From sequence record PP925829.1: 47,946 nt of DNA, one strand, 5' to 3'. The notes below the pieces were generated by a model. It ran no database searches and was not told the DNA's origin. It worked only from the letters and a program-made list of their open reading frames with translations. Origin of the DNA: Escherichia phage IdasGreatGrand. Shown here piece by piece: positions 17,628 through 20,731 of this stretch (within the stretch, counting starts at the first letter, position 1; every line of letters starts with the position of its first letter). A program made the position numbers and the translations under genes.

Positions 17628-17816
17628 AGCCTTACCTCCGCAAATAACGGATGGTGTACACGGTTCGGAACGAAGAGGGAAAGGTATAGAAGTTACATTA
17701 GCGTAAGGCTTGAACATCTATTCAAAAAGAAAAACGCCAGCGATTATTCTGGCGTAGCTGAAAGCATCATACAATTATCAAATACGAAAATTACAAAATC
17801 ATTAAAACGCATCACG

Positions 17817-18557
17817 TTACATCATTTCTTTTTCTAAAAAAAATCTTGATGAATATTGATGGGGAGGAACACCAAAATATCTTCTGAAAACACTTACAAA
17901 ATATGACGTGTTTTCATAACCGCATATCTCAGCAACTTTTCCAACAGAATATAAATTGTAGCTTAATAACCTTTCCGCCATCACCATTCGCTCTTCAAGA
18001 ATTAATTTACTAAATGATAAGCCTTCGTGCTTTAATTTTCTTTTTAACAGACTTTCACTCAGATACAGCCTTGAAGATATATCACAAAGTCGCCATGCTG
18101 CAGATATATCCGTGTGAATAATAGCCTTAACTTTACTTCCTAAACTATTAAGACATCCAAATAAAAAACTTTGCACTATTTTCTCTGAAGATAAGATAGC
18201 AAGACATGCAAGTGATATTTGATTTCTAACAACATCCACAGTTCTGCCATCACAATTCAAGCATGCAATCAAGTTCTTTAACAATGAAAAATCTTCACAT
18301 TCCACCATCAAGTATGCCGGATAAAACCTTCTTACAGAAAAAGGTGAGAGTGTGTTGCTTTTAAAGAAATCATTAACTGTTTTCTCTTCAACATCTACGA
18401 TCATTACATGATCTATATTTGATGAAAAAAAATCTTTTAAATTGTAATCAATGAGAACAGCACTTCCTTTTTTAAACAAAATATCTTCTTTACCAATTCG
18501 GACATCAAACGAGTTCAACACCAAAATGATAGAACATATGTATGGCATATTATCCAC
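17817..18557 (-). CDS. AraC-family transcriptional regulator (AppY/EnvY-like)
   Basis: C-terminal AraC HTH signature (...GYENTSYFVSVFRRYFGVPP...); AT-rich moron region. Confidence 0.75.
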   Translation of the reverse strand: MDNMPYICSIILVLNSFDVRIGKEDILFKKGSAVLIDYNLKDFFSSNIDHVMIVDVEEKTVNDFFKSNTLSPFSVRRFYPAYLMVECEDFSLLKNLIACLNCDGRTVDVVRNQISLACLAILSSEKIVQSFLFGCLNSLGSKVKAIIHTDISAAWRLCDISSRLYLSESLLKRKLKHEGLSFSKLILEERMVMAERLLSYNLYSVGKVAEICGYENTSYFVSVFRRYFGVPPHQYSSRFFLEKEMM

Positions 18558-18899
18558 CTGATATCATTGGGGTTACACCAGGTAAGTATAGGTGGAAAAT
18601 CAATATTCGCCAGTTCAACAATAAGGAAAATCTCATTGCATCACAAGTATAAAATTATGTATTTAACTCACAAAGACAAATTATTAAACCAATCTGTTAT
18701 ATTATATATAGCTACGTGGAATCATAATATTATATATTTTGACTGGCATGTTTACCAACTTTAAATTGTATCTCAATGGTTTGTTCAGCGTAAACAGAGT
18801 TTTTATACAAACTGACACTCTGGGTATCATAGTGTAGTTTTTACGATTGTAAATATCCTGCATGCAGGAACTCATCCTTTTGGATGATATCGCATACAA

Positions 18900-19859
18900 T
18901 TAATTTACCATCAGTCTTAGAGCCAGTTCGTCCGGATAGGGATCGAAGTAATTCTGTGTAAGCAAGTAATCATTAGGATACTCACCCAGATAATGCTTCA
19001 GCAGAGTCAACGGCGCAAGAAGAGGTAATGTGCCAGAACGATAGTTAAGTATAACCTCGCTCAACTCTTTACGCTGGCGTGTACTTAAGTAGTTACTAAA
19101 ATACCCCTGTATATGCATCAGCACATTCGTGTGATTTTTACGTGATGCAGGTTTTCTGAGAATCGCCATCAGCTTATCACGATACACCTCAAAGTATGAT
19201 TCAAGGTCCGCCCACTCGTGTATTGCAGCCACAAATGGTCCCATATCTTTATAGCCTGCCTGACTATGCGCCAACAACTGAAGCTTATAACGACTATGAA
19301 AAGCTAATAACTCTCTTCTTGATAATTTCTCCTTGTAAAGGTGATTGAGCTCATGCAAAGCAAAAACTCTTTCAACAAAATTCTCACGAAGCACTGGATC
19401 ATGTAATCGCCCATCCTCTTCAACCGGTAGCCAGGAAAACTTTTCCATCAAAGTGCTCGTAAATAGTCCCACTCCATCTTTACGACCTCGATTACCATTT
19501 TCATCATAGACACGTACGCGCTCCATGCCACAGCTGGGAGATTTAGCACAAGCCACAAACCCCGATACATCCTTTAATTTGTCCATATAAGAACGACTAA
19601 ACTCTGTCATTCTCTCTGTCACATCCTCATTCTGGTCGTGGCTGAAACACATCCGTATATTTCCTTGCGTCGAGCGCACAAGACGTAGAGCAGGACGCGG
19701 AACTGGCAGCCCTATAGCCATTTCCGGACATACTGGTCTGAATGTTACCCATTCCACTAATTTGTCCATTAAAAAGTCAGCTCTTTTGTGACCACCATCA
19801 AAACGAACAGCAGAACCGGCCAAACAACCGCTGATTCCAATCACAGGTTTTTTTATCAT
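18900..19859 (-). CDS. DUF523/DUF1722-family protein (YbgA/TudS-like)
   Basis: N-terminus KKPVIGISGCLAGSAVRFDGGHKR...PVCPE resembles the DUF523 cysteine-rich motif; family assignment from memory. Confidence 0.6.
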   Translation of the reverse strand: MIKKPVIGISGCLAGSAVRFDGGHKRADFLMDKLVEWVTFRPVCPEMAIGLPVPRPALRLVRSTQGNIRMCFSHDQNEDVTERMTEFSRSYMDKLKDVSGFVACAKSPSCGMERVRVYDENGNRGRKDGVGLFTSTLMEKFSWLPVEEDGRLHDPVLRENFVERVFALHELNHLYKEKLSRRELLAFHSRYKLQLLAHSQAGYKDMGPFVAAIHEWADLESYFEVYRDKLMAILRKPASRKNHTNVLMHIQGYFSNYLSTRQRKELSEVILNYRSGTLPLLAPLTLLKHYLGEYPNDYLLTQNYFDPYPDELALRLMVN

Positions 19860-20051
19860 ATCCTCCTCCTCGACTAATTCATTAACAGATAAACTGTGTA
19901 GTGCACGGAATAAATTGCCTTTCTGGCGTCATCACTGACAATTTTTCTGTTATGGACTATTCCTAATATAGTATGAAAGTTCTTTAAGTGATCGGTCGTA
20001 ATCATCTATCTTTCATACTTACTCTCAACTATCAAAAGTACAGGATTTATT

Positions 20052-20576
20052 ATGAAGTTATGGCCTGTGTTGACTGGCATTGCACTCTCTTTCACTCTTA
20101 TAGCATGTAAGGCCCCGACACCACCTAAAGGTGTGCAGCCGATTACAAATTTTGACGCCAACCGCTACCTCGGAAAATGGTATGAAATAGCTCGCCTCGA
20201 GAACCGGTTCGAACGTGATCTGGAACAGGTCAGCGCTACTTATGGAAAACGGAACGACGGAGGGATTCGTGTACTTAACCGTGGATACGATCCAACGAAA
20301 AATAAATGGAGCGAGAGCGAAGGTAAAGCATACTTTACTGGAGATACTAAAACTGCAGCATTGAAGGTTTCGTTTTTTGGCCCCTTCTATGGTGGCTATA
20401 ATGTAATCAAACTGGATGATGAGTATAAGTATGCTCTTGTCAGTGGTCCGAACAGAGAATACCTATGGATTCTGGCAAGGACCCCAACTATTCCAGATAA
20501 AGTAAAAGCAGACTATGTGCGAACCGCTCAAAAGTTGGGATTCAATGTCAATGAATTATTATGGGTTAAACAATAA
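20052..20576 (+). CDS. blc: bacterial lipocalin Blc-like outer-membrane lipoprotein
   Basis: Lipobox LIAC; motifs NFDANRYLGKWYEIARLENRFE and AYFTGDTKTAALKVSFFGPFYGGYNVI match E. coli Blc as recalled. Confidence 0.85.
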   Translation: MKLWPVLTGIALSFTLIACKAPTPPKGVQPITNFDANRYLGKWYEIARLENRFERDLEQVSATYGKRNDGGIRVLNRGYDPTKNKWSESEGKAYFTGDTKTAALKVSFFGPFYGGYNVIKLDDEYKYALVSGPNREYLWILARTPTIPDKVKADYVRTAQKLGFNVNELLWVKQ

Positions 20577-20603
20577 AATCCCTACCCGAAATAATACTTA
20601 TTA

Positions 20604-20632
20604 GAAAAAAACCAGCCTTTGGGGAGGCTGGC
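20604..20632 (-). terminator. putative terminator (tR'-like) downstream of Q
   Basis: Hairpin CCAGCC-n7-GGCTGG with U-tract on the minus strand, ~100 nt downstream of the quuD stop. Confidence 0.45.
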
Positions 20633-20731
20633 TAAATCAGGAAACAAGCTGTTATATGATAATAACTACGTTGCGATTCCAACATTTAAAATGTTAGACT
20701 AATGACAATCAGACAGCAACTTTTCCTTTAA

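Follow-up and report, generated by a model that had tools for sequence, protein, structure and literature searches.

Which genes does Escherichia phage IdasGreatGrand (sequence record PP925829.1) carry at the site where Shiga toxin (Stx) phages carry stx, and from where were they acquired? The stretch of DNA analyzed (47,946 nucleotides, referred to as the window) contains three genes between the late antiterminator gene Q and the lysis genes, encoding an AraC-family regulator, a DUF523/DUF1722 protein, and a Blc-like lipocalin. A first-pass annotation made from the sequence alone had interpreted them as an AT-rich moron carrying lysogenic-conversion cargo. The evidence presented here indicates that the Q-to-holin interval is probably a 3.1-kb lysogenic-conversion moron, consisting of a captured blc-rudS pair and an AT-rich regulator gene of the PatE/PsrA family. 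All three cargo open reading frames (ORFs) are intact, and on the minus strand, which is that of the late transcript, the order is Q, a terminated leader, blc on the opposite strand, rudS, araC, and then the holin, endolysin, and Rz genes. Q was recognized as PF06530 (2.5e-51) and shares 98% identity with Q of phage 1H12. The three genes lie where the first-pass annotation had placed them, flanked by this Q and by a phage 21-type holin gene, and domain and family searches agree with the identities that it had assigned. The site is, as had been claimed, that of stx, with Q and its short terminated leader on the upstream side and S on the downstream side.

The boundaries of the module were defined by comparison with phage 4A7, which has homologous Q and holin genes and a porin gene at the same site. 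Homology with 4A7 ends at position 17638 and resumes at position 20750, inside the last codons of Q, which delimits an exchangeable module of 3.1 kb (17639-20749) that includes its own post-Q leader. The boundaries proposed earlier, 17718 to 20731, were close to these, except that the left edge followed an over-long holin ORF. The 101-amino-acid (aa) holin of the ORF list (start at 17717) has an overstated start, and identical loci are annotated in RefSeq with the 71-aa form starting at 17627, which the phage-21 holin profile also favors. Sakai prophage Sp4 also carries a different cargo between homologous Q and holin genes. Like other lambdoid morons, the cargo therefore occupies the interval from Q/PR' to the lysis cassette and can be exchanged at the same junctions. 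These junctions are used by the Q-S cargo of Stx phages (stx) and of DLP12 and phage 4A7 (the nmpC/ompC porin gene), and those held in common with the porin phages are the last Q codons and a few bases before the holin ATG. The porin gene of the DLP12/4A7 type is oriented against the late transcript, as is blc here, but the stx and porin cargo and the PR' leader sequence both differ from those of the present module.

To define its distribution, the cassette was searched for in 5,426 complete Escherichia coli genomes, with coverage of at least 80% counted as near-complete. The cassette alone was near-complete in 988 genomes and at least partly present in 1,152, and a query extending from holin to Q was covered to at least 80%, and collinear, in 979 genomes. 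Because 979 and 988 are so close, the near-complete cassettes must nearly all lie between the same kind of Q and holin genes. The first-pass annotation had set its moron reading against that of a host chromosomal segment acquired by imprecise excision with no phage-associated distribution. With the window's Q and holin flanks around 979 of the 988 near-complete cassettes, the moron reading is upheld, the cassette being phage-associated in E. coli and its cargo exchangeable at the Q-holin junctions. The sampled backbones include a DLP12-like nin region (ylcG-rusA-ninE-ybcN) and a Qin-like one (hokD-rem-ydfU...essD-ydfR-rrrQ).

Deposited phage genomes with the cassette are that of Escherichia phage 1H12 and ten related records of the lambda type. 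In 1H12 (NC_049947), gp65-gp66-gp67 show the identical order of Q, blc, rudS, araC, and holin, with approximately 90% nucleotide identity to the window across the region and amino acid identities of 97% (blc, gp65), 93% (rudS, gp66, without gaps and of equal length), and 83% (araC, gp67). The window cassette is another allele than that of 1H12, differing most in AraC, and the backbones also differ, with a lambda-like nin region in 1H12 and the DLP12-like ylcG-rusA-ninE-ybcN region in the window. At least three sequence variants of the cassette exist, at 99%, 94%, and 90% nucleotide identity. The exact cargo protein sequences are already in NCBI, and each of the three proteins has its own PHROG family, labeled "unknown function." The cassette is ordinary in that it is already known and catalogued, and its rudS has already been characterized in the 1H12 allele; in the literature searched, neither a paper describing the three-gene cassette as a unit nor a figure for its prevalence in E. 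coli was found. Two short contigs in a 'Candidatus Nanosynbacter' metagenome-assembled genome (L057, JARKOR010000151.1, and L062, JARKOR010000135.1) also contain the cassette at 93 to 100% protein identity, and they are almost certainly bin contamination.

The DUF523/DUF1722 protein consists of a DUF523 domain (PF04463, residues 7 to 149, 136.7 bits, 7e-40) and a DUF1722 domain (PF08349, residues 192 to 309, 138.2 bits, 2e-40), and it matches phrog_3275 at 752 bits. Jamontas et al. (2024) defined RudS enzymes as fusions of TudS and DUF1722 by which 4-thiouridine (s4U) in tRNA is desulfurized, and 1H12 gp66 (RudS_vir) was one of the six RudS enzymes tested, all of which lowered tRNA s4U in E. 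coli, RudS_vir when overexpressed (PMC11417400). The [4Fe-4S] ligands Cys12, Cys44, and Cys110 are present in the window protein at the same positions as in RudS_vir and RudS_ST, and Cys12 and Cys44 align to Cys10 and Cys43 of TudS. Counterparts of the catalytic residues E51, R60, S111, and S113 of RudS_KT are also present as Glu46 (in the CPE motif), Arg55, Ser107, and Ser109, which were assigned by a constant offset from the Cys positions and not by direct alignment to RudS_KT. By these domains and residues, the gene is a member of the RudS fusion class and is predicted to encode a [4Fe-4S] tRNA 4-thiouridine desulfidase. The earlier assignment of the protein to the TudS family holds for its DUF523/TudS domain but not for the protein as a whole, which is a RudS fusion and not a stand-alone TudS. 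The suggestion that it acts on thiolated bases or tRNA agrees with the s4U-lowering activity of the 93%-identical RudS_vir (PMC11417400). Two NCBIfam equivalogs were rejected, namely stand-alone TudS (TudS_rel_CD3072, 19.7 bits against a cutoff of 130) and YbgA (PRK10167, 190.8 bits against a cutoff of 237). YbgA of E. coli K-12 (b0707), a comparison proposed in the first-pass annotation, has no catalytic DUF523 domain, corresponds at 49% identity to the DUF1722 half alone, and showed no activity when Jamontas et al. tested it (PMC11417400). Their statement that E. coli is without RudS (PMC11417400) is correct for K-12, whose YbgA has just this one half of the fusion, but incorrect for the species as a whole.

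The lipocalin is a member of NCBIfam Blc NF007786 (314.5 bits against a cutoff of 267) with the lipocalin domain PF08212 (1e-43, 149 bits). Its lipoprotein signal, MKLWPVLTGIALSFTLIAC followed by K, contains the lipobox L-I-A-C19 with Lys at +2, as read directly from the sequence with no predictor. The gene converges with Q, and the late transcript runs antisense to it. Blc of E. coli K-12 (b4149) belongs to the same NCBIfam subfamily, and the comparison with this chromosomal gene, which had also been proposed, gave only 59% identity to the window Blc.

Closer relatives of both blc and rudS were found on the chromosomes of other genera. A scan for RudS in one genome per species retrieved 62 non-E. 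coli rudS loci at 66 to 76% identity, in Citrobacter, Enterobacter, Leclercia, Lelliottia, Kluyvera, Klebsiella, Pectobacterium, Dickeya, and others, and none of the 62 has a Q or holin gene nearby. In 41 of them, a blc paralogue lies divergently, no more than 2 kb upstream of rudS. This rudS-linked paralogue shares 77 to 81% identity with the window Blc in most loci (Enterobacter, Leclercia, and Citrobacter sedlakii) and 68 to 72% in two, but only about 66% with K-12 Blc, and the window Blc is closer to it than to K-12 Blc. The chromosomal blc and rudS genes are usually separated by an MlrA-type MerR regulator gene (MlrB-type) and a transthyretin-like gene; in C. sedlakii (79%) and Citrobacter sp. 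JGM124 (68%), they are directly adjacent, as in the phage. Judged by gene order and identity, the divergent arrangement of blc and rudS is conserved on the chromosomes of Enterobacter, Leclercia, and some Citrobacter, and no report of such a chromosomal ancestry (blc-rudS or blc-mlrB-rudS) was found in the literature searched.

In Salmonella, the MerR protein MlrB represses orf319, which encodes RudS_ST (bioRxiv 10.1101/2021.03.09.434593). The mlrB(orf242)-orf319 locus of Salmonella pathogenicity island 2 encodes a RudS of 319 aa with the same Cys positions as the window protein. The blc-mlrB-transthyretin-rudS loci of Enterobacter and Leclercia have the MlrB repressor and, approximately 61 nt upstream of rudS, a conserved probable operator, whereas the phage lacks both and has the AraC gene instead of the chromosomal MlrB gene. 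This element is a dyad, A(T/A)ACTTGGACA-N12-TGTGTAA(G/C)TTT, shared at that distance from rudS by Enterobacter, Leclercia, and related genera (approximately 5940-5973 in locus L014, and about 40 other loci) and missing from the phage cassette; it is probably the MlrB/MlrA operator. The chromosomal rudS loci, with this conserved dyad, score 16 to 18 for the MlrA box, whereas the best match upstream of the phage rudS scores 14/22, equal to the 95th percentile of shuffled sequences, and was rejected as an MlrA box. The phage pair is best read as a conserved stress module that was taken up long ago from chromosomes of other Enterobacteriaceae and has lost the MlrB-type repressor. A recent imprecise excision from the host chromosome was rejected, as the nearest relatives are in other genera, at the RudS and Blc identities given above, and are without phage genes.

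The regulator gene most likely starts at the ATG at 18548, which has an AGGTGG ribosome-binding site and gives the RefSeq length, and not at the GTG at 18557. The protein contains a C-terminal double helix-turn-helix (PF12833, 54.9 bits; PF00165, 44.1 bits) and matches phrog_1450 at 359 bits. It shares 54% identity over 235 aa with PatE of strain Sakai (ECs_0287; E = 5e-89), N-terminal domain included, 48% over 159 aa with PsrA (ECs_1087), and 30%, 30%, and 26% with YdeO, AppY, and EnvY, respectively; the YdeO equivalog was rejected (127 bits against a NCBIfam cutoff of 348). PatE (Z0321/ECs_0287), PsrA (ECs_1087), and PsrB of enterohemorrhagic E. coli (EHEC) O157:H7 are likewise prophage-borne AraC-like proteins of approximately 245 aa with a YdeO/AppY-like N-terminal part, and PsrA also lies downstream of Q and before the lysis genes, in Sakai prophage Sp4. 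All three are activators of GAD/hdeAB acid resistance and indirect repressors of the enterocyte effacement locus (LEE) (PMC10877973). The window AraC differs from them in having other neighbors and in that its targets are putative. By its similarities, it is classed as a further, distinct member of the PatE/PsrA/PsrB clade, a placement for which no report was found in the literature searched. A gene of EcN, CIW80_12240, has also been called PatE (10.1101/2025.08.01.668021) and may be the same gene as this araC. The annotated PsrA (L003, 18804-19391, Sakai ECs_1087) has only 195 aa, and the tblastn similarity reaches upstream of its start (18678-19373), which suggests that the Sakai psrA has a mis-called start or is N-terminally truncated.

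The G+C content of the module is 0.381, compared with 0.494 for the whole window and 0.52 for the adjacent late genes, a deviant composition of the kind expected of a moron. The module is among the lowest-G+C 3-kb stretches, with two others (approximately 28 to 32 kb and 35 to 42 kb) similarly low. The description of all three genes as strongly AT-rich fits araC (0.318) and the spacers, since the three intergenic regions inside the module range from 0.32 to 0.35 and the araC-holin spacer is at 0.39, but it does not fit rudS (0.434) and blc (0.436). Much more AT-rich than its neighbors, araC is by composition of a different origin from blc-rudS.

Table 1. Features of the Q-to-lysis region of the window
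Feature	Coordinates	Strand	Remarks
Q, late antiterminator	20732..21124	(-)	Longest ORF 130 aa; RefSeq homologs start at 21109 (125 aa)
Part of Q-blc spacer: presumed late promoter PR', short leader, and tR'-like terminator	20596..20731	(-)	Whole spacer 155 bp
blc-like outer-membrane lipocalin lipoprotein	20052..20576	(+)	174 aa
Divergent blc-rudS control region	19860..20051		192 bp, 34% GC
rudS, TudS(DUF523)-DUF1722 fusion	18900..19859	(-)	319 aa
rudS-araC spacer	18549..18899		351 bp, 31.6% GC; candidate araC promoters
PatE/PsrA-like AraC-family regulator	17817..18548	(-)	243 aa, 31.8% GC
Terminator-like hairpin and T-run, 3' of araC, just upstream of holin gene	17734..17755	(-)
Class II (phage 21-type) holin, first lysis gene	17412..17627	(-)	PF04971, 71 aa
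Endolysin	16915-17412		PF00959
Rz	16481-16930		PF03245

Terminator-like hairpins lie on both sides of the cargo genes. A tR'-like intrinsic terminator, composed of a hairpin (20633-20610) followed by T7, lies approximately 100 nt after Q, and the Q-blc spacer folds at -28 kcal/mol (z = -4.4). The hairpin and T7 after Q fit the usual PR'-leader-tR' layout, in which the position of PR' is presumed. This spacer is kept in 1H12 but not in 4A7, with which the ATATAACAG block is the sole conserved block shared. In the rudS-araC spacer, the minus strand contains two 10-of-12 sigma-70-like sites (18853-18826 and 18758-18729). A perfect inverted repeat, AAATTG-N21-CAATTT, lies at 19912-19944 in the blc-rudS control region. 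The window contains this repeat a single time, where 0.06 occurrences would be expected; the loci with the same allele, L001 and L062, also have it, and in 1H12 it is degenerate. No conserved sequence is shared between this control region and the Citrobacter blc-rudS intergenic regions. In addition, Rfam (at the gathering threshold) and ARAGORN detected no RNA genes from 17.4 to 21.2 kb. This interval lacks the tRNA genes that Stx phages usually have at the site (ARAGORN).

As a lysogenic-conversion moron, the cassette would act mainly in the lysogen, where the cargo genes would be expressed from their own AT-rich promoters. RudS would lower s4U at position 8 of tRNA (s4U8), blunting near-UV cross-linking and the resulting growth delay, the lipocalin would handle damaged or lyso-lipids at the outer membrane, and AraC would switch on the host acid-resistance genes gadE and hdeAB, as is known of PatE and PsrB. 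Upon induction, RNA polymerase modified by Q would read past the tR'-like terminator, and the late transcript would run antisense through blc, sense through rudS and araC, and past the second terminator to the lysis genes. Several points weigh against this account. Promoter-like sites show no excess across the region (15, compared with 11.4 ± 2.9 in shuffled sequence), and the model of autonomous and late expression is therefore one that we infer. At 54% identity, the same regulatory targets as those of PatE cannot be assumed. Although well expressed, RudS_vir had lower activity on tRNA than the other RudS enzymes, and the shortest lag in growth on free 4-thiouracil was obtained with it (PMC11417400); because of these two results, tRNA may not be the sole substrate of RudS_vir. 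Insertions of IS1, IS2, or IS3 or the loss of araC in some strains show that the cassette is dispensable, and no lysogen phenotype of the cassette was reported in the literature searched.

The lower tRNA activity of RudS_vir also bears on a very unlikely alternative, in which the main substrates of RudS would be free thiolated bases or nucleotides rather than tRNA, for salvage or detoxification in the manner of TudS. The comparatively low tRNA desulfidation by RudS_vir and the short lag that it gave a uracil auxotroph on 4-thiouracil speak for such a role, but RudS_vir nevertheless reduced s4U in tRNA in vivo, growth was not supported by any RudS in the way it is by TudS (PMC11417400), and the window protein keeps a complete DUF1722 tRNA-binding domain (138 bits). 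It is likewise highly improbable that the cassette is an essentially neutral hitchhiker, linked to a successful Q/PR'/holin module and with no selected function in E. coli. Its constant linkage to the same Q and holin flanks, the frequent IS insertions and partial deletions, and the lack of a PADLOC defense signature would agree with neutrality, whereas three full-length intact ORFs in approximately 18% of complete genomes, in at least three sequence variants, do not, and the amino acid identities of 93 to 97% for RudS and Blc, compared with approximately 90% at the nucleotide level, are consistent with purifying selection. A role in defense or anti-defense was rejected, as none of the three cargo proteins matches PADLOC models at E ≤ 0.01.

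RudS could instead serve the phage itself, as a Q-dependent late product that after UV induction strips s4U from host tRNA, so that a near-UV cross-linking or stringent-type delay would spare late synthesis and lysis. The gene lies between Q and S in the same direction as the late operon, and nothing but terminator-like hairpins intervenes; the repressor MlrB and its operator, by which chromosomal rudS is kept in check, are missing from the cassette; and overexpression of RudS (RudS_KT) reduces the UVA-induced growth delay (PMC11417400). However, the late transcript would run antisense through blc, the divergent blc-rudS pair with its own AT-rich control region looks autonomous, and in the stretches examined the cassette is kept in defective-looking prophages (a truncated early region and a Qin-like backbone), and this reading is unlikely. 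An extended form of it is also improbable, namely that a chromosomal, MlrB-repressed near-UV/photo-oxidative stress pair (RudS and the lipocalin) became, in the phage, free of its repressor and part of the late operon, so that upon sunlight or UV induction RudS would strip the photosensitive s4U8 and translation would be kept up for virions. If true, it would represent a phage-directed tRNA "de-modification" step, with altered tRNA thiolation and near-UV behavior in approximately one-fifth of E. coli strains as a side effect.

Taken as lysogenic-conversion cargo, the cassette leaves current concepts unchanged and is a well-behaved example at a known hot spot. Its value is mainly corrective, in that approximately 18 to 21% of complete E. 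coli genomes carry a prophage-borne RudS, and tRNA s4U levels and near-UV responses may therefore vary with the prophages of a strain. In addition, it adds a widespread member, not restricted to EHEC, to the PatE/PsrA/PsrB prophage regulators that rewire the acid-resistance regulon of the host, and the blc-rudS link in the chromosomes of other Enterobacteriaceae hints at a shared stress function.

The window contains three further features outside the cassette. A C4 antisense RNA (RF01695, 72.7 bits) and isrK (RF01394, 60.7 bits) at 24260-24442 (-) lie directly upstream of an Ant-like anti-repressor ORF at 23605-24213 (-). By these matches, the lambdoid prophage has in its early-right region, at 23605-24442 (-), a c4-ant immunity module of the P1/P7 type. 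An AT-rich gene pair at 37432-39896 (+), located between the integrase gene (35405-36709) and the tail-fiber genes of a neighboring prophage, encodes a PtuA-like AAA ATPase (PADLOC PDC-M01A, 668 bits; PtuA, 613 bits) and a partner (PDC-M01B, 375 bits), and looks like a candidate Septu-like defense system at the prophage junction. A 357-aa protein without a Pfam domain, encoded at 29837-30910 (+), matches the PADLOC candidate defense family PDC-M11A at 443 bits. Its gene directly follows that of a cI-like S24 repressor (29079-29768), and the position after the cI repressor gene is that of rexAB in lambda.

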